From NCBI GenBank assembly GCA_000004695.1, contig CM000152.2:5280001-5344000 (forward strand): a stretch of 64,000 nucleotides of DNA, in the 5' to 3' direction. The notes below the pieces were generated by a model that worked only from the letters and a program-made list of their open reading frames with translations, was not told the origin of the DNA and did not search any database. Within the stretch, counting starts at the first letter, position 1, and every line of letters starts with the position of its first letter. Shown one piece after another: positions 5,533-59,806 of the stretch. A program made the translations under genes and the position numbers. This DNA comes from Dictyostelium discoideum (Eukaryota).

Positions 5533-8500
5533 TTAATTTTTAAAAATATAGTTTATATGATTTTGAATCATTTTTTCATTAACCATTCCTCCTTCATATG
5601 AGTTCATTGATTGTAATAATTCTTTAGTTTTCTTTGAAACACCAAATCCATTACCCAAGTTATAAATATTATATAAATCATCTAATGAATGGAATGTTTT
5701 TAATTTTACACATGATAGAATCTTTGATTGATTAATGATATTCTTCCATTGTTCATATTCAACCATTTCACATCCATATTGCTTTTCCAAGAATGAGAAT
5801 GAAGGGTTCATTGCTGAAACTTCACTATTTAAACTATAGATATTTAATTGATTTGAAGATGATTTATTCCAACATTTTTCATTTCCAATCATTTTAATTG
5901 TATTTAAACTTATCCAACCAATTGGTGATGTTAATATGTTTTTATCAATTTTTGGATACTTTTTAACTGCATAACATGATTGAATAATTAATTGGAAGAA
6001 ATCAGAATCATGACCAATACCTGTTTCTTCATGTGAGAATATAATTGGTGGTCTAATTAACATTGATGGAATACCTCTTTTTGCTACTTCTCTTAATAAA
6101 TTTTCAACAACTACTTTACTTTTCATATAACCACCTGGTAAATTATTAATATTTTCAATTGTTGGTATTACTGTTTCTTCATCAAATTCTTTACAATTTG
6201 ATGCATTAAAGAATACTGATACTGAGCTAAATCCTACAATTGGTTTTTGATAATCACCAGTTGTTGAAAGTTTAATTAATTCAATGAAACCACCAATATT
6301 TACAACTTTACTCTCTTCATAATTTGATGCTAAATTAATATCGGCACCTGAATTAATTATTAAATTAATTTGATTTGAAATATAATCAAAATCTAATTTT
6401 GATAATCCTAATAATGGTGATGCTAAATTACCAACTATTACTTTAATTTTTGATAATTCAAATTCATTGTGAAAGTGATATAGTTTATGATGTTTCAAAT
6501 TATTAATTATAGCATTGATTGGATTTGGTTCTGATTTTTTATTTCTAATTAAACAATATACAACTGAACAATTTGGTGATTTAATTAAGTTTGATAATAA
6601 ATGAACACCTAAAAATCCGGTTGCACCTGTTAAAAATACTTTTGAATCATTTCTAAAATCAATTGGATTCATTTTAATTGCTTGAATTGATTCATCTAAT
6701 TTCATTTCATTTCTCCAATAGTCTAAAGTTGGTGCTGAATCTTTTTTAATAATATTTTTTGATTTTCCTTTAGTTTCATTTGAATCTAGTTTTTTGATTT
6801 GTTCTAAAATAGTTTGAATATTCATATCAATTGTATTATTTTGTAACTGTTGAAGTGTAATTACATTTGATTTAATATCTTTATCAATGAAATTCTTTAA
6901 TTGTACTGAAGTTAATGAATCTGCTCCATAATCACTTAAACGAATATCTGTGTTGATCTTTGATTGTTCAATTGATAAGAGTTCTGAAATTTTATTTAAA
7001 ATCTTTGTTTGTATACTTTCTGATACACTATTTTCACCACCATTACTATCATTATCTTTTTCTTTGATTGAATTTAAAATGAAATCTAATCTTTGGAAAG
7101 TTGATGTTTCTGATGATAATTTCTTAATTGAATCATAGTTAAATTTACTAACAATTAAGTTTGAATTTTTATTTGAATTTTGAAGTTGTAAATCTAATGA
7201 ACCTAAAATTATATTTGTTGGAATTGGAATGAAACCTTGATCATCTAACATTTTTGAAACTAATTCATTTCTTGATACAAAACCTGCTGATTTAATTGCA
7301 CCCCAATTTGTACATGTTGATGGTAAACCAATTGATTTACGATATCTTGATAATGAATCTAATACTAAATTTGCAGAAACATAACTACATTGGTTGAATG
7401 AGCCAAATAATGATGCAATCGATGATGCCATAACAAATTGTTTTAATTTCCATGATTTCTCAATTGAAATTTCATGTAAATTAATTGCACCCATCGTTTT
7501 AGCATTATGTGAAATATCTAATGATTCAATATCGATTTCTTCTACTTCTTTAGTTATTTGAGCGAATGCATAATGGAATATTGAATCAATGTTATCAATA
7601 TTTGGATTTTCTAATAAAATTTGATTAATTGATTTTCTCATTTCAATTGGATCACCAACATCTACACTCTTGAAATGGAATTTAGTGTTATTATCCTTTC
7701 TTGATATTGTTTTATTGATTAATAGTTCTAACTCCCATTTTAATGATGATTTTGATAAAATGATAATGTTTTCAAATGATTCTGTTGGTGAATATTTAAT
7801 TAACCATTTTAAGATTTCTAAAATAATACCTGATTGACCTGTAATAATTATATTTTTACCAATTATATTTTTTGTATCAATTTTGAAATCATATTTTAGT
7901 ATTGTGTGATTCTTTTCATTGTTATCTGATTCAATGAGTTGATTTAATAATCCATCACTACCGATACTACCATTTGAACAACTATGATCTAATACAATTT
8001 TACCAATATGTTTTCTTTGATTAATATATTCAATTGCTTCTTTGACATCTTCAATCTGGAATGTTGTTATTGGAATTGGTTTTAATTTGTTTTCATTTAA
8101 AGCATTTGAAATGGATTTTAATAATCTTGAAACTACTTTTTTATTAATATGCATAAGTTCAATATTATGATAACTCTTGTTAAATTTGAAATTGTTGAAA
8201 TTTAAAAATTCATTGTTATTTAAATGGGTAATTGAAAGATCAATGATTTTACCTCTTTCTTTTAAACATAAAAAGTTTGAATGTGTAAATTCATTTGGTA
8301 ATGTATTTATAATTAAATCTACTCCGTTGAATTTACCAGTTGTACCATAAAGTTGATTTAATTTTGATTTGATTTCATTTACATAGTTTTTATTTCTTGA
8401 TGAATAAATACCAGTTATGAATGATCCATAATTATCAATTAAATATTGTTCTTTATCTTTTGAACCTACTGTGACGAAAATTGGTGATTTATGACCTTTC

Positions 8501-11500
8501 CATTTTAATATTTCTAATGTTGCTAAACCAATACCACCTGTTGCTGAGTGAATTAAAATTACTTCATCATCATCGATATTAAAATTACCAATGTTGAACA
8601 TACCATGAAGACATGTTGAAAAAATGACTGGTAATGATGCTGCTTCAACATGACTAATATTCTCAGGTTTATGTGAAACATAAAGTACATCAGCTATAAC
8701 ATGTGAAGCGGTTGTGTCACAAGCTATACCAAATACATTATCGCCTACTTTAAATTCACAATTTTGATTCTCATTAGATATTCTTGTGATAATACCTGAA
8801 AATTCGAGACCAAGTGGATTTTTAGATATTGATACATTTTCATCAATAACAACTAAACCACGATAAATTAAATAATCTTTATAATTAATACCTGTTGCTA
8901 AAACTTTGACTTCAATTTGATTCTTTTTTAATTTCTTTGGTTTTGATGCTAATTTGTATTCTAAATTTGTTGAATCTAAGAGTGTCATAAAGTCATTATC
9001 TTCGAACGAATTTGAATTGAAGTTTGATTTTATATTCTTTTCATTCTTTAATATTTCATAATAAATTGAATTATTTCTAATTATATATTCTCTTTGAATA
9101 TGGTTATTTGAATTTTCAATCAATTGATTAATGATTTTATTTAATAATGATGATATTGATAATTGATTATCAAAATCGATTGAATATAGATTTAAACTTG
9201 GAAATTCATTAAAGTATCTTGCTGTACCTATTATTGATGATGATAAATAGTTTTTGATTTGTGAATCAATAGTAATTAATACATGTTTACATGTTAAACT
9301 ATGTTTTAAAAGTTGTTGATTAATTTCAATATATTCCATTGTAATTTGTTTGAAATTATTCATTTCTAATTGTTCCATTGATTTAATAAAGTAAATTATT
9401 GAATCATTTGTTATTGAAGGTAATAATTGATTAAATTCATTAATATTCGATATTATTGTTTGTTTGCAGCTGATATGATTATTTGAAATTAATTTCATAA
9501 ATTCATTTGTATATTTTGATTCTTTTTCACAATAAATTATAATATTATCATTTTTATTGTTTGGAACAACTGTTAATTCATTTGATAATATTGTTGATTT
9601 TTGTGATTGTATTACTTTATTTGACTTTTGAATTTTGTTTTCATTAAAACCTAAATTTATTAAACTATCGATATTGTATTTATCACCAATATCATCTCCA
9701 ATTATTAATAATAATCCATTTGAAGAAAGAATATTAAATATTGATTTGATGATTGTTTCATCATCACCATCATTATTATTATTAATGATAATATCATAGT
9801 ATGATGGTTTTAACTGGGTTATATCATTTTTAAAGATTAAACTTGAATCGTGTAAAGTTGGAAGTTTATCATTTGAATTATCAATAATTGTAAATTCTAT
9901 ATCGATTTCTTGTAAACTATTATCATCGAAAATTTGATTTAATGTTTCAATGATTTGTTTTGATAATTCTAAATCTGAAAATGATTGTAAAATTCTAAAA
10001 ACAATTTTTTCATTTATAATTGGTTTGATTGTTTGTTTAATAATTTCTGTAACTGTATTGCTGCTGCTGATGCTGCTAAAAGTTTGATTATTATCAATGG
10101 ATAAAATATTAACTAATGAATCTTTACATTGTAAATTATTTGTAAATAATTCAGTTGTAGGATTATTAATTAATAAACTATTAAGTAATGGAAGAGTTGA
10201 ATGTAAAGATATACAATCCATTTCTAACAACTTTGTACCATCTTCTAATAAAACTAAAACTGATGATTTATAGCTATCTGATTCCAAGGAGATGAATTTT
10301 GCTTGACAATAGATATTCTTATATTTTAATTTGTCAGTTGGTATATTTTCAGAATAAACTTTTAAACCTTCAAGTCTTTCAAATACAAACTGGCTTGAAT
10401 TTGTAATGAATCCAACTATAGTTTGTGAACAACTATCTAATAAAGCTGTATTGAAAAATGATTTATCGTATGTTTGATAAACTGGCTTACCATCGATATC
10501 AAAGTTTTCAGTGTTTACTTGAATTTTAGATATAATACAATCATTACCAAAATACAACTCTTCAATTCCTTGGAAAGCTCCTAAATGAGTGATTCCAGTT
10601 ATTGATCTGGAATGTTTGTAAACTTCTTGTTTTGAAAGGGTTGTAAAATTACATTCTGATAGCAATTGATTTATATCATATTTAGATGAGTGATCATTAT
10701 TATTATCTTTTAGTGATATAAGTTGAAAGTTACCAGTACATGTTTGAACCCATTGATTTGTTTTATTATCTTTTATGTTGAATGTAACTCTATAATCAGT
10801 GTTACCTAATTGATAAACATTGGTTTGTAAAGTATGTTTGACATTTTCTTTTAAAACAAATGGTGCTAAAAATTCCAAGTTATTAATTATAATATCTTGA
10901 TTTGGGTAAAGTTTCATAATATTATCAGCATATCCAATACCTGGGAAGTAATATTTTCCTTTTACAATATGGTCTTTTAAGTATTTGAATGGATTTCTAT
11001 TTATATCGATTATTGATTCATATGATTTGTTATTTGATGAATAGTTAATCATTGATTTACCTAAACTGTTGAAAACATTTGGTCCATTTAATCTATATTG
11101 TTCAAAGTTAATATCAACTTTCCAATAGTGTTGTTCGTCGAATTGATAGTTTGGTAAACTGATATTGACCTTGCTGTTTCTAATGGAACTGACATCATCA
11201 TCATTGTGATTGAATTGACACTTGAAGTTTACATCATAACCTAAACAATAAATTTGTGAAATTGTTGAATGAATTTCATCTAAATCATTGGAGTTCTTTT
11301 TGTTTGTTGATGTTAATACTGAAACTGAATTAAAGTAACTTGATGATTTTGGTATCATTTGTTTTAAATAAAATGATAAACTTGGATGTGGTGAAACTTC
11401 AATAAATATTAATTCATTACCAAGTTTATTATTTTCAATGTGTTGATATAAATTTGAAATAGTTTGAGAGAATCTGACAGGTTGTATTATATTTTCATAA

Positions 11501-41765: not shown

Positions 41766-41776
41766 GGTTCGACTCC
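41766..41776 (+). promoter_or_regulatory. External B box (ex-B, GGTTCGACTCC) 31 bp downstream of tRNA-Glu
   Basis: Exact B-box consensus outside the tRNA, a known feature of many Dictyostelium tRNA genes. Confidence 0.7.
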
Positions 41777-41789
41777 TTCATTAATTATC

Positions 41790-42270
41790 CCAAAGGTTGT
41801 GAGAATTCAAATTAAAAATTAAGGAATATTACTCTACATTAAAGACCCACATATACCCAAAACAGAATTTCAAAAAGATCTATTCTTAAGAGGATATAGC
41901 TACAATCAACTATTCCCAAACATATTGAAGATAAGAAATCCGAACAAATTATTTTAATAATTTTAATATTACAAATATTAGAGAATCTTCATTAACTTTT
42001 AATTCAATTATTAATAATAATACCAATTCAATAATTTTAAATCCATTATGTAATACAAATATGATTAATGATCCATATGGCCATCTATTCTTTGATTGTC
42101 TTAAAACAAAATCATATATTAATGCATCCAAACTTAAAGAATTCATCTTCAAATCAACAGGAGGAAAAAATAATTGGTTACACGAAAGAACTACCAAAAA
42201 CAACAAAACAATAAACAAAATCACACCTATTACCTTCCAACAATAATTAAAAAAAAAAAAAAAAAAAAAA
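41790..42270 (+). mobile_element. Candidate 5'-truncated non-LTR retroelement fragment (TRE3-like?) starting about 55 bp downstream of tRNA-Glu and ending in a 24-nt oligo(A)
   Basis: Non-AT-homopolymer sequence with a short ORF (42061-42246) running into a poly(A) tail at 42247-42270. The position downstream of a tRNA gene matches the TRE3 targeting preference. No RT/EN motif is present in this short fragment. Confidence 0.3.
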
Positions 42271-43506
42271 AATAACAAATCAAAATACAACAATATAACC
42301 AATTGTTACTATTCAAATAATTAAAATAAAATAAAATAAAATAAACATTATTATTGCAGAAGGTCTAACCCTTAGCAATTAATTAATTAATAACTAAAAA
42401 AAAAAAAAAATTCACATCATAATTAAAATTCAAAAATAAAATTGTAAATTATTGTTTATTCCATTTGGATAAACACTGGTTAACCGATTTTTTTTATATA
42501 AAAAAATCATAGTCTGCTCACGAATTTAGGTGACCTAACTTAACCTTGCAAGTTTTTTTTTAATTGCTAATATTTTTAAAATTTACAGTGCAAAAAATAA
42601 TAATACATAAAAATAAAAATTAAAAAAAATGGGAAAAAAAAACAACAATCTTATAATTTTTTTTTTAAATGGACAATATGTAAATCTTTAAAGATTTAAT
42701 CATAATAATTTATTATAATATTAGTTTAAAAATACTTTCTTGATGCCGACCGTTTCTTTATCATTTTATCTAATTAATCAGTATTTCTTTTCAGGCGACT
42801 GATTATTTGATTCTCTACCAGTAGTTCTTTTAAGGAGACTGGAAATTTCTTAATTCTATTCATTTTAGTATCTATCCATGAATTTTTATTTGAACCAATT
42901 TACTTTACCATTATCAATAATTTCCAAACATTTTAGTATCCATTTTTATTACTATTTTTAGTTTTATAACTATTTCCAATCTGTAAAATATATTAATAGC
43001 AACCTTTCTTTATAATATTAAAACAATAATTTCTAAACATTTTAGTATCTATCCATATTTCAACCATATAAACTATTTCCAATTTCATTTTAGTATCTAT
43101 CCATTTATTACCATAATTTCAACTATTTCCAATTTGTAAAAATATTTAATATTACCACACAGTACATTTTAATTTGTTACTTTAACCAAATTCCAACCAT
43201 TTTTTAAACTATTTCCAATTTTTTAAAATTGATTGCTACCAATTAACAAATTATTATAACAACTTGTTTAATAGTAATGGTAATATAACAAGATTTCTTG
43301 AAATTTTAATATCTACCCACAAACATTTAAACCATTTTCTAATACTACTGGCCAAAATATTTAATATCAATCCATAACTATATTTACAAATTATTCAAAA
43401 TATTCTTTGATTTGGTAGTTCATTGACATTATCCCAACAATGATTTATAAGTCCAAAACCAAAAAAATGAGATAGCCCCATAAACGTTACAAGTAACGGA
43501 GAAAAT

Positions 43507-45919: not shown

Positions 45920-45990
45920 TGCGTATGCCGGGAATCGAACCCGGTTCAACTGCTTGGAAGGCAGCTATCATACCACTAGACCACATACGC
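45920..45990 (-). tRNA. tRNA-Gly (anticodon UCC), 71 nt
   Basis: Minus strand GCGTATGTGGTCTAGTGGTATGATAGCTGCCTTCCAAGCAGTTGAACCGGGTTCGATTCCCGGCATACGCA. Anticodon loop CTTCCAA; acceptor GCGTATG/CATACGC. Confidence 0.85.
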
Positions 45991-46039
45991 TTTGTTGATG
46001 ATAATTTAGGGTAAATGCTCGAATAAATTTTAATTATAA

Positions 46040-46228
46040 TTTGTAATTTTTTAGTTATTTATTTTTATATAGAAGCAAAAATAAAGATTTTGTTCAGCAA
46101 AATTAAAGATTTTGTTCAACAAAATTAATATATTTAACCAGATATTCTAGATCTAGAATAATACCACCACGATCAGCGATGTATATTAGTCAACAATAAT
46201 TAAAAACAAAAAAAAAAAAAAAAACTCC
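46040..46228 (+). mobile_element. Possible short poly(A)-terminated retroelement 3' remnant about 50 bp upstream of tRNA-Gly, with an internal 21-bp direct repeat (aaagattttgttca(g/a)caaaatta) and oligo(A) at 46205-46225
   Basis: Position (about 48 bp 5' of a tRNA gene) and the oligo(A) end distal to the tRNA match the TRE5 targeting geometry. No coding similarity to confirm. Confidence 0.2.
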
Positions 46229-53095: not shown

Positions 53096-53540
53096 TTCTT
53101 TGTATTGTTTTAAAAAAAAAAATAATAATAAAAATTGGTGGTAGCCATATCAGACATCCTTATACAAAAAAAAAAAAATGGTTTAGATATTAATTAATGA
53201 AACTTGGGTCTTAAGCAATAATAGTTTAAGTTTTTTTATTTTTTTTATTTTACCTCAAGGTAAAATACACCTTTTGATTTGTGAATTATTGGGTATTATT
53301 TCTGGGTTTTTAGAGTGATTTTTGGTTTGGACTCTTTTGAGTGGTTTGATTGGTGTTTGGTATTTTTAGGTTGATGTGGGGTTAACTATAGCTAAGAGGA
53401 CCCTCTCCACCACCTTACAAATCTCTTTTAATCCGAAAATAACCAAAATTATAAAAAAATAAAATTAGTTTTGATTAATGCTTTATAGAATTCATATAAT
53501 ATTAATTGTGTTTCATTTTTTAATTATCAATTATTCAACA

Positions 53541-53551
53541 GGAATCGAACC
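53541..53551 (-). promoter_or_regulatory. ex-B box (GGTTCGATTCC on minus) 30 bp downstream of tRNA-Ser copy 1
   Basis: Exact B-box consensus outside the tRNA. Confidence 0.65.
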
Positions 53552-53580
53552 TCTGATCTAATTTAGTTCTGTAAAAAGAT

Positions 53581-53661
53581 CGACACCTGCAGGGTTCGAA
53601 CCTGCGCCTCCGAAGAGAACGCCTTAGCAGGGCGCCGCATTAACCACTTTGCTAAGGTGTC
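53581..53661 (-). tRNA. tRNA-Ser (anticodon GCU), copy 1, 81 nt with long variable arm
   Basis: Minus strand GACACCTTAGCAAAGTGGTTAATGCGGCGCCCTGCTAAGGCGTTCTCTTCGGAGGCGCAGGTTCGAACCCTGCAGGTGTCG. Anticodon loop CTGCTAA; acceptor GACACCT/AGGTGTC; T-arm GCAGG-TTCGAAC-CCTGC. Confidence 0.85.
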
Positions 53662-54599
53662 ATCACAAAAGTTTTGTTTGACTCACTTTATTAAAATGTC
53701 ATCTCAAACTATTTGGGGTGATACACTTTGCTTAGGTGTCACCGTGACAACAACATCAAACTCAACCTTCAATTCAAACAAATTATCCAGAACAACAACA
53801 ACCAAAATTAACACAATTAACATCAATTGAGATCTCTGCAAACTTGATTTTAGTAAATTTCTCTAAAATTTTATTTTTTTTACTTTTTTTTTCCTAGAAA
53901 TTAATTTTCAAATTTTTTTTTTTTACCTTGGAGGTTACCAAGATTTATTTTTTGTAACCTTCCAGTTTTTTTGAGTTTTTTTGAGTTTTTTTTATTTTTT
54001 ATTTTTTTTTTTTCTTAGTGTGTGTTGTTATAAAACAAATGTGTTCATATTTGTTTTAATTTTCCTCTCTTTTTTTTTTTAGTGTTTATTTATTTTTATT
54101 TTGTGTTCATTCTAACCAAGTCAAATATAAAAAGAAAAGAAAAAAAAAAAAAAGAAAGAAATAGAAAAAAAGAAAAGAAAAGAAAAGAAAAGAAAGAAAT
54201 AGAAAAAAAGAATAAAAATAATAATAAAAAAACTTTACAAATCATGTGAAAATAATAATAATAGTAATAAATCTGCTTTTATAAATTTTTTTTATTAAAT
54301 TTAAATAAAAAAAACAAATTAAGAATATATTTTTTTTGTTTTATTTTTAATTTTGAAATTTCATTTGATTTTTTCTCAAATAAAAGTAAATTATTTTTAT
54401 TTAAAATTAATTATTTGTTATCGAATAAAAAAAAAATTTAATTCAAAATAAATGAAAGTGACAATTCAAATTTATTATTTTTAAATTTAGTTTATTTTTA
54501 AAATTTACTTTTATAAACATTAAAAAGACTTGTTTTCAATTCAATGTAAAAATTTTCAATAAAAAAAACATTCATAATAAATTTTAGATATTGTCGATA

Positions 54600-54790
54600 A
54601 CATCAACTTATTATTTAAAAATAATCATGTTAAAAATTTTAATGTCTATTAAATATTTATTTTATTGATGACCTCACTACTTTCAAAATTTAATGCAGTA
54701 AATGGAGATCGAAGTAATAAACAAACAATCTATAAAAAATCTTGTTCAGGTTTGTTAATCTTGTTAATTCGTATTTTAATTTAAAATAAT
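54600..54790. repeat. ~180-bp segment duplicated at 59075-59250 (about 85% identity), part of a segmental duplication that carries tRNA-Ser copies 2 and 3 and their ex-B boxes
   Basis: Aligned by eye: …atcatgttaaaaatt(tt)aat(g/a)tctattaaatatttattttattgatgacctca…ggagatcgaagt…aatcttgttcag(g/a)tttgtt(a/t)atcttgttaattcg…. Confidence 0.7.
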
Positions 54791-54846
54791 ATATTTGATT
54801 AATTATTTTTATTATTTAATACTTCCCTCAGAACATTTATCTACAT

Positions 54847-54885
<39 letters not shown>

Positions 54886-55121
54886 TGGATTAACAAGATT
54901 GATATATGTCCATCTGTGTTAATACGAGTTTTATTTAATATTTATTTAAAGGCTTATCATTTAAGCTGAAGGGTTATTTTAATCATATGAATTGATCAAA
55001 AGATATAATATTTGGGAGAGATGATTCTGGTCTACATAATGGTGATGTTTTTGTATTATTTATTTATTTTTTTACAACAGGAGTCGAACCTGTTATTATG
55101 TTTTGAATTTTGGAAAAATTT

Positions 55122-55202
55122 CGACACCTGCAGGGTTCGAACCTGCGCCTCCGAAGAGAACGCCTTAGCAGGGCGCCGCATTAACCACTTTGCTAAGGTG
55201 TC
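55122..55202 (-). tRNA. tRNA-Ser (GCU), copy 2, identical to copy 1
   Basis: Identical 81-nt sequence. ex-B box GGTTCGACTCC (minus) at 55080-55090. Confidence 0.85.
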
Positions 55203-55249
55203 ATCGAAAATAAAATGGGAGATACACTTTCCTAAGGTGTCATTGAATC

Positions 55250-55527
55250 AAAAAATAATCAGATCGAAAAAAACAAACAACAACAACAATCTCTTTTTTT
55301 GATTATTTCATTTTTCATATAAAAAAGACTTAAAAAACAAATAAATAAATAAATAAACTATTTTAAAAAGCCATCTTTTTACTTTATTGTAATTTATTAT
55401 TTGTTTCGTTTTGAGAATTTTGCGTAGCAAAATTTTCAAAAAAAAAGCAAAAAATAATCAGATCGAAAAAAACAAACAACAACAACAATCTCTTTTTTTG
55501 ATTATTTCATTTTTCATATAAAAAAGA

Positions 55528-55575
<48 letters not shown>
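55250..55575 (+). mobile_element. Poly(A)-terminated element fragment beginning about 48 bp upstream of tRNA-Ser copy 2. Contains an 80-bp internal direct duplication (55253-55333 and 55448-55528) and ends in A46
   Basis: Position 48 bp 5' of the tRNA with oligo(A) distal is the TRE5 insertion geometry. Exact 80-bp duplicate visible. Likely a 5'-truncated TRE5 3' end or 3'-UTR module. Confidence 0.35.
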
Positions 55576-55578
<3 letters not shown>

Positions 55579-57280
55579 GGAACCAAGTTAATTAGAAAAT
55601 TTCCAGATTTTTAACTTTTTAAAGAAAAATAAAAAAGATAGAAAGAAAATAAAATGAAAATCCCAAACAACACCCCAAATATTAAGCAACACAAATGCCT
55701 ACAAAAAATAAGCGAAATTGTGGATAAAACTCAATTAAAAAAAAAACAATTCAAATACGTCATAAACATCAATCACGAACCAGACGATAAAATAAAAAAA
55801 GATTTAGAAAAAAGTTTGGACAAAAAAGATGTTTTAATCAAAAGTAATAATACATTCAAAATTCTCACAGACAGTATTAGTACAGTAATCTATTTTGTAA
55901 ATATGTTTGATGCAGAATTAAAAGGACAATTTATAACCACTATAAGACCAAAAAATATGTATACAGATTTTGATTGGTATAAATCACTCACAGAAATAGA
56001 ATGGGTAATAGAAAATGAAGGATGTAAACTAATTAAATCAGAAATTAAAGGCGAAACTCTAATTATCAAAACAGTGAAAAGAGTCGTAGAAGAATTTGAC
56101 ACTATCATTGAACTAGACAATCTAACATTAATTGGACACTCCAACAAAGGATGGAGAGATCAAACCTCATTACCAGAAAATCAAGAAGAAAACAAAAATA
56201 AAAAACAATCAGATGAACAACAACCACAATCTACATCAGAACAAATACCAAAACAAGGAAAAAGAACAATCATTATCCCACCAATCACATCCTCATCTAA
56301 TGATAAAACATTTATGGCCCTAGATGATACAGCTCAAAAGGTAATAGAAGCATCACTAGAAAACGTAGATGAACTAACAAGAATAGAGAATGAGATCAAT
56401 ACACAATCGATAAACAATCAAGAAATTAAAACAAAATCAGAAAAACCTATCGAACCACCATCTCCATACAATACACCAATAAAACAACACGGCGAAACAA
56501 AGGGACTAACAACGGAAGAAAAACTTAGAGAGGCAAATGATATCTTCGACTTCACCAGCCCAAACACTGATGCAATAAGAAAAATAGAATTCCCACTTTC
56601 AATCCCTTCAAATCAATGGTTCTTCTCCTCTCCAATAAAACATATCATGAGTTTCAGCCCAACCTATGGGCACCATCGAAAATTATCGATTCACCAAGTA
56701 AATTGTTAAACACACCAAAAAAGAAACAACAAGACAAAACAAACAAGACCAACAAAACACCAGTCAAACCAAAATTGGGTGAATATGGACAAAAAAGCAT
56801 AAAAACAAAAATGGATGAAGATATAGACAACTTCAACAAGGAAATTCTAAAACAAATCAATAAATCAAAAAACCCCACAAACACACAAGACCAACAACAC
56901 AACGAACAAAGTAAAGATCAGTTAGAAGACAAAATAAACCAGAAACTTCAAAAGGTAGATAAAAATCTACCCCAAATAAAACTATAAAGAAAAACACAAT
57001 AAGAATAGGTGTTTGGAACGTCCAAGGATCCAACACCATCCAATCTGCCAGCATAATAAACACCGTTTTAGACAACAACAAGCTGGACGCAGCACTTCTA
57101 ACTGAAACAAATATAAAAACAAATAAAATTTACTCAATAAATCAACAATATAAAAACAAAATAACACACCACGCACCAATTGATAAAACAGGACAAGGGG
57201 TGTCACAAATCATCATCAACACCCGCAATAGAACTTCCTAAACATCTCAAAAAATACAATAATTCACTCAGTACTTTTTA

Positions 57281-57340
<60 letters not shown>
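55576..57340 (+). mobile_element. TRE5-type (DRE-like) non-LTR retrotransposon copy, degenerate and internally deleted: 5' leader, ORF1 (55654-56709, continuing in a shifted frame to 56987), first ~80 codons of ORF2 (AP-endonuclease N-terminus …IRIGVWNVQGSNTIQSASIINTVLDNNKLDAALLTETN…), then truncated with oligo(A) at 57290-57340
   Basis: The ORF2 start matches the APE/L1-endonuclease N-terminal pattern (W-N-[VI]-x-G…D[IV]xxLQET). It is tRNA-proximal on the 5' side of a tRNA, and a second partial copy follows. The specific TRE5 subfamily cannot be assigned from memory. Confidence 0.55.
55654..56709 (+). CDS. Retrotransposon ORF1 (351 aa as read; frameshifted near 56630-56700, original ORF probably to ~56987)
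   Basis: The first 63 codons (MKIPNNTPNIKQHKCLQKISEIVDKTQLKKKQFKYVININHEPDDKIKKDLEKSLDKKDVLIK) recur, 61/63 identical, in the second element copy at 57383-57571. Confidence 0.5.
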   Translation: MKIPNNTPNIKQHKCLQKISEIVDKTQLKKKQFKYVININHEPDDKIKKDLEKSLDKKDVLIKSNNTFKILTDSISTVIYFVNMFDAELKGQFITTIRPKNMYTDFDWYKSLTEIEWVIENEGCKLIKSEIKGETLIIKTVKRVVEEFDTIIELDNLTLIGHSNKGWRDQTSLPENQEENKNKKQSDEQQPQSTSEQIPKQGKRTIIIPPITSSSNDKTFMALDDTAQKVIEASLENVDELTRIENEINTQSINNQEIKTKSEKPIEPPSPYNTPIKQHGETKGLTTEEKLREANDIFDFTSPNTDAIRKIEFPLSIPSNQWFFSSPIKHIMSFSPTYGHHRKLSIHQVNC

Positions 57341-57341
<1 letters not shown>

Positions 57342-57660
57342 CAAGTTAATCAGAAAAATAAAAAAGATAGAAAGAAAATAAAATGAAAATCACAAACAAC
57401 ACCACAAATATTAAGCAACACAAATGCCTACAAAAAATAAGCGAAATTGTGGATAAAACTCAATTAAAAAAAAAACAATTCAAATACGTCATAAACATCA
57501 ATCACGAACCAGACGATAAAATAAAAAAAGATTTAGAAAAAAGTTTGGACAAAAAAGATGTTTTAATCAAAAAGACCCTGTAAAAAAAAAAAAAAAATAA
57601 AATGAGATCTAGCATCTCAAGGAGAAGCAAATAATAATTGCGTTATCCAATTCAAAAAAA
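57341..57660 (+). mobile_element. Second TRE5-type copy reduced to its 5' leader, the first 63 codons of ORF1 (57383-57571), and an ~85-bp 3' terminal segment (ccctgtaaaa…gagatctagcatctcaaggagaagcaaataataattgcgttatccaattc + oligoA)
   Basis: The leader (cccaagttaatcagaaaaataaaaaagatagaaagaaaataaaatg) is homologous to 55590-55656. The same 3' terminal segment recurs alone at 59489-59580. Confidence 0.5.
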
Positions 57661-57666
57661 AAAAAA

Positions 57667-57950
57667 GGTGTCATTGAATAAAATGGGATGATACACTTTG
57701 CTAAGATGTCATCGAAAACCAAATGGGTAATACACTTTGCTAAGCTGTCATCGAAAACCAAATGGGTAATACACTTTGTTAAGGTGTCATCGAAAACCAA
57801 CGGGTGATACACTTTGCTAATCTGTCATCGAAAAATATTTGGGTGGTAAACTTTGCTAAGGTGTCCACACAAAATATTTGGGTGATACACTTTGCTAAGG
57901 TTTCGTCGAAAAATATTTGGGTGATACACTTCGCTAAGGTGTCATTGAAA
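57667..57950. repeat. Tandem array of about 7 units of a 42-bp repeat (gtgtcatcgaaaaccaaatgggtgatacactttgctaaggt). Each unit contains the first ~17 nt of tRNA-Ser(GCU), including its A-box, plus ~25 nt of its 5' leader
   Basis: cactttgctaaggtgtc is the plus-strand image of the tRNA 5' end GACACCTTAGCAAAGTG. Shorter versions sit directly upstream of each tRNA-Ser copy (53662-53760, 55203-55250, 59447-59488 and 59579-59660). Confidence 0.8.
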
Positions 57951-59365
57951 AATAAACCACCACAAGACTAATTTTTTGATAAATAATTTTTTTTTTATAG
58001 TTTTTATTGTTTTTTTTATTTTTTTTAAGAAAATGTGGCTGAATAATAATTTTTGAAACTATATTAAAATAAAAAATAATTAAAAAAAATACAAAAAATA
58101 AAAATAATCAGTAAAGTGATTTATATTTTTAATTTATAAAAAAATATAAAAAAAATGAATATACATTCTGCAAACTCGATTTGACTCCATTTGGTTTCTA
58201 ATTGTCTTAAAAATTATTTTTTTTATTTTTCCTTTTTTTTTTTCTTAATTTTTTAAAAAATAACAATAAATCTTACCCTATCAAAATTGTTATTTTTTTT
58301 TCTATTTTAGGATTTATTACATATTTAATTAATATAATTACTTTATTACTATTGTATTTTACAGTTGTAGTTTTTTTTATATAAGATGGCTCGAGATGAG
58401 TAACTGGACTGTCTAATTTTAGGAATTTAAAAAAAAAAATAAAAACTATTCAGAGAACCCAATTTCATTTTTAATTTTTTTTTTTTTTTTAGGGAGTTTA
58501 ATTCAAGAACAATTATAAACCATTTTAACTAATAATAATATAAGTTTTTTTTTTTTTTTATAATATTTTATAATATAAGTTGTTTTTTTTATTTTATTTT
58601 ATTTTTTTAATTATAATTAAATTTGTTTTTGAAATGCAGTTTTATTTAAAAATTCTAAGGTTTTTTCAATAAACTTTATTGAAAAATTTAGGGGAGTTAT
58701 ATGGCCATATATTTTCCTTAATGTCATGGTGCATAGATAAATCTTTCCTTTCTCTGACTTTAGATTAATATTGATTATTTTTATTTCCCTTTGGATATGA
58801 TAGTATTGATATGAACATTGATGTTTTAATAATACACATTTTTCAGCATTTCTATTGTAAAACAACACTTCTATTTAATTTAATGTCACATTTCATCAAC
58901 ACCAATATTTAACTTAAATTTTTTTTTTTTTTTTTTTTTTTTTGATTTTTTTTTTTTTTATAATTTTATTTTAATTTTTTTATATAAAAAGATATAATTT
59001 TTTTTTTTCATTTTATTATTAATTTAAAAAGGTAAAAAAAAAAAAAAAACATTTAGTAAAAACTTTACTTAAATAATCATGTTAAAAATTAATATCTATT
59101 AAATATTTATTTTATTGATGACCTCATTAAATTCAAATTTTAATACAGTCAACGGAGATCGAAGTGCCTGTATCTTAAATTGTGCTCATTAACAAACAAT
59201 TTATATAAAATCTTGTTCAGATTTGTTTATCTTGTTAATTCGTTTTTTATTTTTGTTACTAACATACTATTGATCTACAAATAGTAATAGTAAGCATTTT
59301 ATTTTTTCCAACAGGAATCGAACCTGTTATTCAGCTTTGAATGTTGGGAAATTTTTGCAAAATTT

Positions 59366-59446
59366 CGACACCTGCAGGGTTCGAACCTGCGCCTCCGAAG
59401 AGAACGCCTTAGCAGGGCGCCGCATTAACCACTTTGCTAAGGTGTC
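59366..59446 (-). tRNA. tRNA-Ser (GCU), copy 3, identical to copies 1 and 2
   Basis: Identical 81-nt sequence. ex-B box (GGTTCGATTCC, minus) at 59314-59324. Confidence 0.85.
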
Positions 59447-59488
59447 ATCCAAAACCAAATGGGAAATACACTTTGATAAGGTGTCATC

Positions 59489-59580
59489 GAAAAATCCAAT
59501 GACCCTGTAAAAAAAAAATAAAATAAAATGAGATCTAGCATCTCAAGGAGAAGCAAATAATTGCGTTATCCAATTCAAAA
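59489..59580 (+). mobile_element. Solo ~90-bp retroelement 3' terminal segment + oligo(A), inserted 43 bp upstream of tRNA-Ser copy 3 and splitting its 42-bp leader repeats
   Basis: Same sequence as the 3' end of the element at 57580-57660. Flanked on both sides by leader-repeat units. Confidence 0.5.
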
Positions 59581-59806
59581 AAAAAAAAAAGTGTCATCGA
59601 AAACCAAATGGGTGATAAACTTTGCTAAGGCGTCATTGAAAAATATTTGGGTGATGATTTTTTGTGAAATTTCGGCTGGAAGATAAAGAATTGCTTCATA
59701 AAATTTTAAATAAAAATGCTTTATTACCATTAATTAAAATTATAAATAAATAAAACAAATTTCAAAATTTAAATATAATATTACACTTTATTATTTTTAT
59801 TTTTAT

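Follow-up and report, generated by a model that had tools for sequence, protein, structure and literature searches.

The tRNA-Ser(GCU) genes and their flanks

The DNA analyzed here, referred to as the window, is a stretch of 64,000 nucleotides from chromosome 3 of Dictyostelium discoideum AX4 (positions 5,280,001-5,344,000), a placement with which five tRNA coordinates agree when compared with Table S2 of PMC5391098. ARAGORN placed three tRNA-Ser(GCU) genes, all of them minus-strand, at 53580-53662, 55121-55203, and 59365-59447, and the published coordinates correspond to 81-nt genes annotated as SerGCU-9, SerGCU-8, and SerGCU-7 (copies 1 to 3; Table 1). A preliminary description of this DNA had reported three identical genes in the same orientation, each with a downstream ex-B box, and both statements are borne out. 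The copies are identical over the gene, and the ex-B box GGTTCGA(T/C)TCC, for which zero matches were expected by chance, is present on the minus strand at all of them, 29 (copy 1), 31 (copy 2), and 41 nt (copy 3) past the tRNA 3' end.

The same description had derived copies 2 and 3 from a segmental duplication, and paired flanks agree with this origin: 91% of the aligned positions match between 54619-54782 and 59071-59253 (23 gap nt), and a second common flank (55062-55247 versus 59296-59491) matches at 87%. Copy 1 has in common with the other two only the stretch from the ex-B box to the tRNA gene, and its upstream side carries no TRE5 element.

Table 1. Coordinates of genes, duplicated flanks, and retrotransposon parts within the window
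Feature	Position	Strand	Remark
tRNA-Ser(GCU) copy 1, SerGCU-9	53581-53661	-	ex-B box at 53541-53551
Downstream flank common to SerGCU-8 and SerGCU-7	54619-54782		partner 59071-59253; segmental duplication
tRNA-Ser(GCU) copy 2, SerGCU-8	55122-55202	-	ex-B box at 55080-55090
Left 13-bp target-site duplication of TRE5-A.2, GGTGTCATTGAAT	55236-55248		right copy at 57667-57679
5'-truncated A-module (3' 88 nt), tRNA-proximal element end	55249-55336	+	199-nt repeat spacing
Full-length 199-bp A-module (55337-55535) passing into the A44 run (55531-55574)	55337-55574	+	L003 junction; published length 200 bp
5' B-module, exactly 290 bp, with the ORF1 start codon at 55654	55575-55864	+	length as published
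TRE5-A ORF1 (444-aa type), 1-nt frameshift near 56668	55654-56987	+	protein identity, primer matches
ORF2, initial ~78 codons (beginning of the endonuclease region) up to the TRE5-A.2 deletion junction	56987-57222	+
ORF2 region, 3' terminal part (57226-57286), then internal A53 (57287-57339)	57226-57339	+	homology to L002 and L001
3' B-module, 233 bp, small internal deletion, cut by the BC deletion	57340-57572	+	99% repeat match
C-module remnant (81 nt) and A13 tail, including the published 3' hairpin region	57573-57666	+
tRNA-Ser(GCU) copy 3, SerGCU-7	59366-59446	-	ex-B box at 59314-59324
Solo 5'-truncated TRE5-A C-module (83 nt + A14)	59494-59590	+	target-site duplication GTGTCATCGAAAA at 59481-59493 and 59591-59603

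The retrotransposon upstream of SerGCU-8

The upstream side of SerGCU-8 is occupied by an element of 2,418 bp (55249-57666) that starts 46-47 bp from the tRNA gene in head-to-head orientation and is bracketed by a single 13-bp duplication. [quoted passage not shown] The canonical upstream placement that had been described before, with the 5' end toward the tRNA gene, stands at about 47 bp, the former range of 43-48 bp being corrected. An origin of the 13-bp duplication as a by-product of the flanking 39-bp repeat was considered and rejected, since both copies have private variants in common that distinguish them from this repeat and the deletion of one copy restores its 38-39-bp register.

The initial assignment to TRE5-type non-LTR retrotransposons holds and can be narrowed to TRE5-A. 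ORF1 is 97-98% identical to multi-copy 444-aa proteins of AX4; the 51-kDa ORF1 protein of TRE5-A is unrelated to ORF1 of other TREs. The published TRE5-A ORF1 qPCR primer Rep-109 has an exact match in the element, and Rep-108 matches save for one base omitted from the printed primer. No site for the ORF2 primer Rep-75 occurs, in line with the ORF2 deletion of this copy. TRE5-B and TRE5-C were rejected as identities, given that the primers match and that both a C-module and a 3' B-module are present. ORF1 and the start of ORF2, previously noted in the middle of the element, are present from 55654 and 56987 onward, respectively, with the qualification that ORF1 is frameshifted. The 63 codons of the ORF1 start that had been seen a second time were recovered at 57383-57571, within the 3' B-module.

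According to the published description of TRE5-A (PMC3159450), the A-module measures 200 bp and the B-module 290 bp; ORF1 begins within the B-module, which recurs downstream of the ORFs, and the element closes with a C-module and oligo(A). All of these modular untranslated regions were found: A-modules with a repeat period of 199 nt, the 290-bp B-module, a 3' B-module 99% identical to it over 221 nt, and a C-module core with its tail. Runs of A terminate three of the segments, i.e., A44, A53, and the terminal A13 at 57654-57666; the lengths of A44 and A53 may be affected by homopolymer assembly. The basis for recognizing this architecture is the published module lengths and relatives of 79-90% identity (L001 to L005, drawn from three further Dictyostelium assemblies) rather than a canonical AX4 consensus of TRE5-A.1 or TRE5-A.2, and the module phase of the truncated A-module was taken from the relative locus L003.

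The element belongs to TRE5-A.2 (formerly DREb), the non-autonomous AB-ORF1-BC derivative that is characterized by a large ORF2 deletion and a 72-bp BC deletion after which the final ~87 bp of C remain (PMC3159450). ORF2 homology breaks off at 57222 and begins again at 57226, a jump over about 2,960 bp of L002, and in the alignment B is cut after ...AATCAAAA and C resumes at AGACCCTGT. The C remnant comprises 81 nt (94 with the tail) versus the published 87; the 72-bp figure is quoted as published. The 3' hairpin of the C-module is needed for retrotransposition, with T15, C26, A35, and C38 named from the 3' end (PMC3159450); all four bases are present in the remnant, and the hairpin stems have a predicted folding energy of -11.3 kcal/mol (z = -3.1). 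Pfam recognizes neither ORF1 nor the 84-aa ORF2 fragment, the latter being too short for a call; the fragment is colinear with the ORF2 N-terminus of the L001 and L002 elements, which carry RVT_1, and a search with it yielded just two short proteins, a full-length AX4 ORF2 not being among them. Both deletions, in ORF2 and across BC, are hallmarks of the mobile TRE5-A.2 subfamily; the copy inherited them, and they did not arise at SerGCU-8.

The resemblance to TRE5-A.2 extends to the length of about 2.4 kb, the loss of most of ORF2, the B/C deletion that leaves the 3' part of C with its hairpin, the head-to-head position ~47 bp upstream of a tRNA gene, and the 13-bp target-site duplication. There is no essential difference; the copy at SerGCU-8 has 1.45 A-modules owing to 5' truncation, its ORF1 is frameshifted, and a small additional deletion affects its 3' B-module. 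The autonomous 5.7-kb TRE5-A.1 (DREa) has the same modules, ORF1, target site, and orientation, but it possesses a complete ORF2 (endonuclease, reverse transcriptase, and zinc finger) and a complete 137-bp C-module, whereas in the SerGCU-8 element ~3 kb are missing from ORF2 and B/C is incomplete. TRE5-B and TRE5-C also target sites upstream of tRNA genes and have a related ORF2, but they are devoid of a 3' B-module and TRE5-B is additionally devoid of a C-module (PMC3159450), both of which the SerGCU-8 element has. Mobilization of TRE5-A.2 depends in trans on the ORF2 protein of TRE5-A.1 (PMC3159450). The frameshifted ORF1 argues that the present copy would be a poor source element, and it is, judging from its sequence, probably weak or dead in view of the 5' truncation, the frameshift, and the extra deletion in the 3' B-module.

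One insertion at each of two paralogous genes

Taken together, the SerGCU-8 element represents with high confidence one TRE5-A.2 insertion, and the stub at SerGCU-7 a second, independent event, both subsequent to an old tandem duplication. Copy 3 had been credited with a 3' stub only, which is confirmed; its distance from the tRNA gene, formerly given as 43 bp, is 47 bp when judged by its own 13-bp target-site duplication, and its orientation is likewise head-to-head. The C-modules at SerGCU-8 and SerGCU-7 differ at 1 of 76 aligned sites, compared with 30 of 268 in the duplicated flanks (Fisher p = 0.005). Because the C-modules have diverged far less than the flanks, the two insertions are independent and later than the duplication; the segmental duplication of copies 2 and 3 is thus older than both. 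Moreover, on the upstream side of the TRE5-A.2 breakpoint the stub retains 7 additional nt, ATCCAAT. Since these resemble the full C-module of L001 and L002, the stub did not come from the A.2 copy and, by this likeness, seems to derive from a full (A.1)-type C-module.

It is very unlikely that a single TRE5-A insertion preceded the duplication of copies 2 and 3 and that the SerGCU-7 stub is the same element deleted down to its C-module. The 3' junctions do lie at equivalent positions in the paralogous flanks (A13 followed by GGTGTCAT versus A14 followed by GTGTCAT), but the stub is flanked by an intact 13-bp duplication of its own, shifted by 1 nt, so that the deletion would have had to stop exactly at the duplication boundary. 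The retained ATCCAAT and the low divergence of the C-modules relative to the flanks likewise speak against a shared insertion.

In the preliminary description, the DNA upstream of SerGCU-8 was read as a serial stack of three TRE5 insertions (55250-55575, 55576-57340, and 57341-57660) about 47 bp from the tRNA gene, each with its own poly(A) and later trimmed by local internal deletions. There are indeed three same-strand segments that each close in an A-run, the second and third open with the same sequence, and occupied tRNA genes do get re-targeted (PMC9012585). However, every insertion at -47 should leave a 10-16-bp copy of the tRNA-proximal flank between the pieces, and no flank sequence was detected at 55574/55575 or 57339/57340, where A44 is followed directly by CCTGGG and A53 by CCCAAG. 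A nested stack implies a target-site duplication for each member, with the newest nearest the tRNA gene; instead, one duplication brackets everything. The A-runs are real, but the supposed pieces correspond to sections of a single TRE5-A.2, namely its A-modules, its B-ORF1-deleted-ORF2 core, and its B-C tail, in the published module order and with the published module lengths. [quoted passage not shown]

Independent elements have the A-run junctions in common with the SerGCU-8 copy. L001 and L002, which still carry reverse transcriptase, show the order ORF2 3' end-A58/A61-B-C, and 57226-57339 is homologous to L002 10248-10316 plus A61 and to L001 9575-9603 plus A58; in L003, which lies upstream of a tRNA-Leu gene, the A-module end is followed by A(about 30), B, and ORF1. 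Because these module junctions occur in independent elements of other Dictyostelium genomes, A44 and A53 belong to the TRE5-A family. Three separate insertions at SerGCU-8 are very improbable. A weak BLAST match of the A-module to L002 from position 5835 onward was dismissed as poor alignment extension. An assembly artefact, in which repeat-rich, AT-rich DNA was mis-joined at homopolymer runs, is hardly credible: runs of 44-53 A are difficult to assemble and TRE5-A is multi-copy, but the parts follow exactly the published TRE5-A.2 order with a matching duplication around them, and the same junctions are found in independent long-contig assemblies, which limits the doubt to the run lengths.

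Proposed history and relation to known TREs

An old tandem duplication very probably gave rise to the three tRNA-Ser(GCU) genes, each with its ex-B box, and was followed by two independent TRE5-A retrotransposition events. By analogy with published work, the ORF1 protein would contact TFIIIB sitting upstream of an active tRNA gene, and the ORF2 endonuclease/reverse transcriptase would carry out target-primed reverse transcription ~47 bp upstream, with the 5' end toward the tRNA gene. At SerGCU-8, one non-autonomous TRE5-A.2 RNA, already of the AB-ORF1-BC type and already lacking ~3 kb within ORF2 as well as 72 bp at the B/C junction, was presumably copied nearly to its 5' end, with a stop within the first of two A-modules, which would have resulted in the 2,418-bp insertion and its 13-bp target-site duplication. 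The second event, at SerGCU-7, appears to have been aborted early, leaving 83 nt of C-module, the A14 tail, and a separate 13-bp duplication. Neither A44 and A53 within the element nor its repeated ORF1 start are traces of separate local insertions; they are fixed features of the TRE5-A family.

A tentative extension, which we regard as possible rather than probable, is that the A-runs inside the element represent relics of poly(A) tails and record the assembly of the TRE5-A family itself. A TRE5-B-like core (B-ORF1-ORF2-An) might have gained an upstream A-module-An and a downstream B-C-An, either by read-through transcription of an ancient insertion pile at one tRNA gene or by template jumping of the reverse transcriptase onto poly(A) tails, and the composite would then have spread as a single unit. 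At every module boundary an A-run is indeed succeeded by an exact element 5' end, and the TRE5-B-like relative L005 ends with A18 exactly at the position of A53 in the window, which is consistent with such an ancestral stack. Published proposals already trace the C-module to 3'-transduction and the B-module to duplication.

The locus adds nothing new to TRE biology, since SerGCU-7, SerGCU-8, and SerGCU-9, the structure of TRE5-A.2, the 47-bp head-to-head targeting, and 5'-truncated stubs have all been published. It is at most a tidy textbook case of two independent, precisely placed integrations at paralogous tRNA genes after a local duplication. A caution nevertheless follows: a lone modular TRE5-A copy, with its internal A-runs and duplicated 5' segment, mimics nested and deleted insertions if it is read without a reference.

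A short A32-tailed remnant of 182 bp (54849-55030) was additionally observed 82-91 bp downstream of SerGCU-8 in the orientation of the tRNA gene. BLAST comparison of this piece, and of A-tailed remnants near tRNA-Glu and tRNA-Gly genes, with loci L001 to L005 yielded nothing useful. The remnant is placed and oriented as TRE3 elements are (TRE3-like by position), in contrast to the main element at SerGCU-8, which lies upstream of the tRNA gene in the opposite orientation.

Identity of the element upstream of SerGCU-8

The plus-strand element (total length, 2,418 bp) upstream of the tRNA-Ser(GCU) gene SerGCU-8 (copy 2) is the already known TRE5-A.2, located at an annotated tRNA gene. Its ORF1 is 97 to 98% identical to several multi-copy "hypothetical" AX4 proteins. 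Among published TRE5-A primers (ORF1 qPCR sequences, PMC4559204), Rep-109 matches exactly at 56098-56126 and Rep-108 matches at 55759 and 57488, save one base absent from the printed primer; the ORF2 primer Rep-75 has no match in the element. TRE5-A.1 is organized as AB-ORF1/ORF2-BC (Siol et al. 2011, PMC3159450), with a 200-bp A-module, a 290-bp B-module that contains the ORF1 start and recurs in the 3' untranslated region, and a 137-bp C-module. In the non-autonomous derivative TRE5-A.2 (AB-ORF1-BC), a large part of ORF2 is deleted, as are 72 bp spanning the B/C junction, so that just the final ~87 bp of C remain; TRE5-B and TRE5-C are without the 3' B-module (PMC3159450).

The element follows the TRE5-A.2 plan throughout (see table). 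Alignment with full B-C tails placed the start of its C remnant exactly at the TRE5-A.2 breakpoint; all four hairpin bases mutated by Siol et al. (T15, C26, A35, and C38 in 3'-end numbering) are present, and the predicted fold of the C-module stems has a z value of -3.1. The preliminary description was right about the TRE5 identity and tRNA targeting; ORF1, the ORF2 start, and a second copy of the initial 63 ORF1 codons were all found.

Features of the SerGCU-8 element, the SerGCU-7 stub, and the neighboring tRNA genes (single window positions are gene starts)
Feature	Window position	Remark
A-module repeat	55249-55535	period 199 nt (internal repeat spacing)
5' B-module	55575-55864	exactly 290 bp
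ORF1	55654-56987	
ORF2 homology	ends 57222, restarts 57226	~2,960 bp of full-length relative skipped
3' B-module	57340-57572	99% identical to first
C remnant	57573-57666	81 nt + A13
Stub at SerGCU-7	59494-59590	83 nt C-module + A14
39-bp minisatellite upstream of each SerGCU copy	53662-53745; 55203-55248; 57665-57956; 59447-59493 / 59591-59660	
GluCUC-1	41663	chr3 start 5,321,663
GlyUCC-4	45920	chr3 start 5,325,920
SerGCU-9 (copy 1)	53581	chr3 start 5,333,581
SerGCU-8 (copy 2)	55122	chr3 start 5,335,122
SerGCU-7 (copy 3)	59366	chr3 start 5,339,366

A 1-nt frameshift near 56668 leaves a 351-aa ORF1 with the remaining residues in another frame, and since cis preference of ORF1 has been reported (PMC3159450), the element is probably not a good source for new copies. 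Over all 63 codons, the 3' B-module copy shows 100% identity to the consensus ORF1 N terminus, whereas two amino acid changes mark the functional 5' copy (55654-55680 versus 57383-57409; MKIPNNTPN versus MKITNNTTN).

According to the literature, the TRE5-A ORF1 protein would contact TFIIIB positioned upstream of tRNA genes, and target-primed reverse transcription would insert the element at 47±3 bp, strictly head-to-head; TRE5-A.2 uses the ORF2 protein supplied by TRE5-A.1 (PMC3159450). The distances to the tRNA gene, previously given as 43 to 48 bp at copy 2 and 43 bp at copy 3, are corrected to 46 to 47 and 47 bp, respectively, the rest of that description being accurate.

One insertion versus three

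The same sequence had been interpreted as a serial stack of three nested, poly(A)-ended insertions (55250-55575, 55576-57340, and 57341-57660) with local internal deletions. The A-runs taken as limits of the pieces are real (A44 at 55531-55574, A53 at 57287-57339, and A13 at 57654-57666); the stack itself proved wrong, and a single insertion is favored on four lines of evidence. First, a single 13-bp target-site duplication, GGTGTCATTGAAT (55236-55248 and 57667-57679), flanks all 2,418 bp, and none is present at the A44/B or A53/B junction. Since a 39-bp tandem repeat makes up the flank, the duplication was checked for periodicity: both copies carry common private variants and removal of one restores the 38- to 39-bp register, which rules out mere periodicity. 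Second, a new TRE5-A at an occupied tRNA gene inserts on the tRNA side of the older element and generates a 10- to 16-bp duplication of its own (PMC9012585), and flank copies would therefore be expected between stack members. None occurs at the internal junctions, where A44 directly adjoins CCTGGGAACC and A53 directly adjoins CCCAAGTTAA. Third, truncation in target-primed reverse transcription hits 5' ends, which counts against the stack because the first piece consists of 5'-terminal promoter modules and the third is a precise element 5' end without a body. [quoted passage not shown]

Fourth, independent elements in other assemblies of Dictyostelium have the same junctions. Two loci with retained reverse transcriptase have the orders ORF2 3' end-A58-B-module-A-rich-full C-A12 (L001) and ORF2 3' end-A61-B-A27...-C (L002), and a third (L003), upstream of a tRNA-Leu gene, reads A-module end (...CATATAAAAAAGATTT)-A(about 30)-CCAGGGAACCCAAG...-ORF1. 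Judged from these alignments, the internal A-runs are part of the family architecture. With the phase fixed from L003, a complete A-module (55337-55535) lies next to B, preceded on the tRNA side by 88 nt (55249-55336) of an additional, 5'-truncated A-module, as is usual when reverse transcription stops short.

The solo C-module and a possible origin of composite TRE5-A

The feature at the annotated SerGCU-7 gene is a solo C-module, which begins 47 nt from the tRNA and is flanked by GTGTCATCGAAAA (59481-59493 and 59591-59603). Because 7 nt ahead of the TRE5-A.2 breakpoint (ATCCAAT) are retained and are similar to the full C-module of L001 and L002, it probably derives from an element whose C-module was intact. 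Compared with the C-module at SerGCU-8, it shows a difference at 1 of 76 aligned sites, against 30 of 268 in the duplicated flanks (Fisher p = 0.005). Given this lower divergence, its own duplication, and the ATCCAAT, both insertions are younger than the segmental duplication and mutually independent. A short element at L001 (10440-10597) has only the A-module 3' part, an A-run, and the C-module.

A TRE5 relative in Dictyostelium cf. discoideum (L005; GCA_054859235.1) with a 465-aa ORF1 (65% identity) and an ORF2 of 1,019 aa terminates (region 10100-10175) in ...CACTCAGTTCTCTCTATAAGT-A18 (...TATAAGT-A18). Neither a B nor a C module follows, which resembles the published description of TRE5-B. 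Since this end point coincides exactly with the internal A53, the latter is plausibly, from sequence comparison, the fossil poly(A) tail of an ancestral core, and composite TRE5-A may go back to an ancient event: a stack, a transduction, or template jumping. This idea is a modest extension of the literature, which suggests 3'-transduction for the C-module and duplication for the B-module.

tRNA genes, repeats, and further insertions

ARAGORN detected five tRNA genes in the extremely AT-rich window. Adding 5,280,000 to each of their positions gives entries in Table S2 of Spaller et al. 2017 (PMC5391098), which places the window at D. discoideum AX4 chromosome 3, 5,280,001-5,344,000; the tRNA-Ser(GCU) triplet was thus catalogued previously. 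As first described, its members are identical and equally oriented (all on the minus strand), each is followed by an ex-B box (GGTTCGA(T/C)TCC, 29, 31, or 41 nt beyond the 3' end; chance expectation 0), and copies 2 and 3 are segmentally duplicated (55062-55247 versus 59296-59491, 87%; 54619-54782 versus 59071-59253, 91% of aligned sites). The homology of copy 1 to both is limited to the ex-B-to-tRNA stretch.

With the TRE5-A insertions taken out, the 39-bp repeat, of which no description was found in the literature searched, comprises 2, 8, and 2 pseudo-units at SerGCU-9, SerGCU-8, and SerGCU-7, and both integrations lie between pseudo-units -1 and -2. Downstream of SerGCU-8 by 82 to 91 bp, in the position and orientation (that of the tRNA) expected for TRE3, lies a 182-bp 5'-truncated retroelement remnant (54849-55030, minus strand) ending in A32 (T32 at 54849-54880) and flanked by the 9-bp duplication TCTACATAA (54840-54848 and 55031-55039). 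It explains most of the homology gap between copies 2 and 3, the latter looking like an empty site; BLAST against the comparison loci gave no useful match.

On the downstream side of tRNA-Glu(CUC), past its ex-B box (41766-41776), two consecutive A-tailed segments (~41830-42273, A25, and 42274-42411, A15; plus strand) run in the same direction as the tRNA. The first has an open frame ending ...CNTNMINDPYGHLFFDC...QQ*. Neither has similarity to the comparison loci; both are probable TRE3 remnants, and together they may form a true stack of two members. A short plus-strand segment (~46038-46225) ending in A17 (46209-46225) lies upstream of the minus-strand tRNA-Gly(UCC) gene, whose 5' end is at 45990, and is possibly a TRE5-type stub in a degraded state. 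True layering of insertions at tRNA genes is seen at L003 (5003-5830) and L001 (666-5113), where sequences of the Ty3/gypsy type, probably DGLT-A and solo copies of its LTR, lie between the tRNA gene and a TRE5-A-like element. Outside the window, 560 kb farther along chr3, a second triplet (SerGCU-3, -4, and -5 at 5,898,457, 5,902,871, and 5,906,903; ~4-kb spacing; Table S2, PMC5391098) suggests a duplication of the whole triplet at a larger scale.
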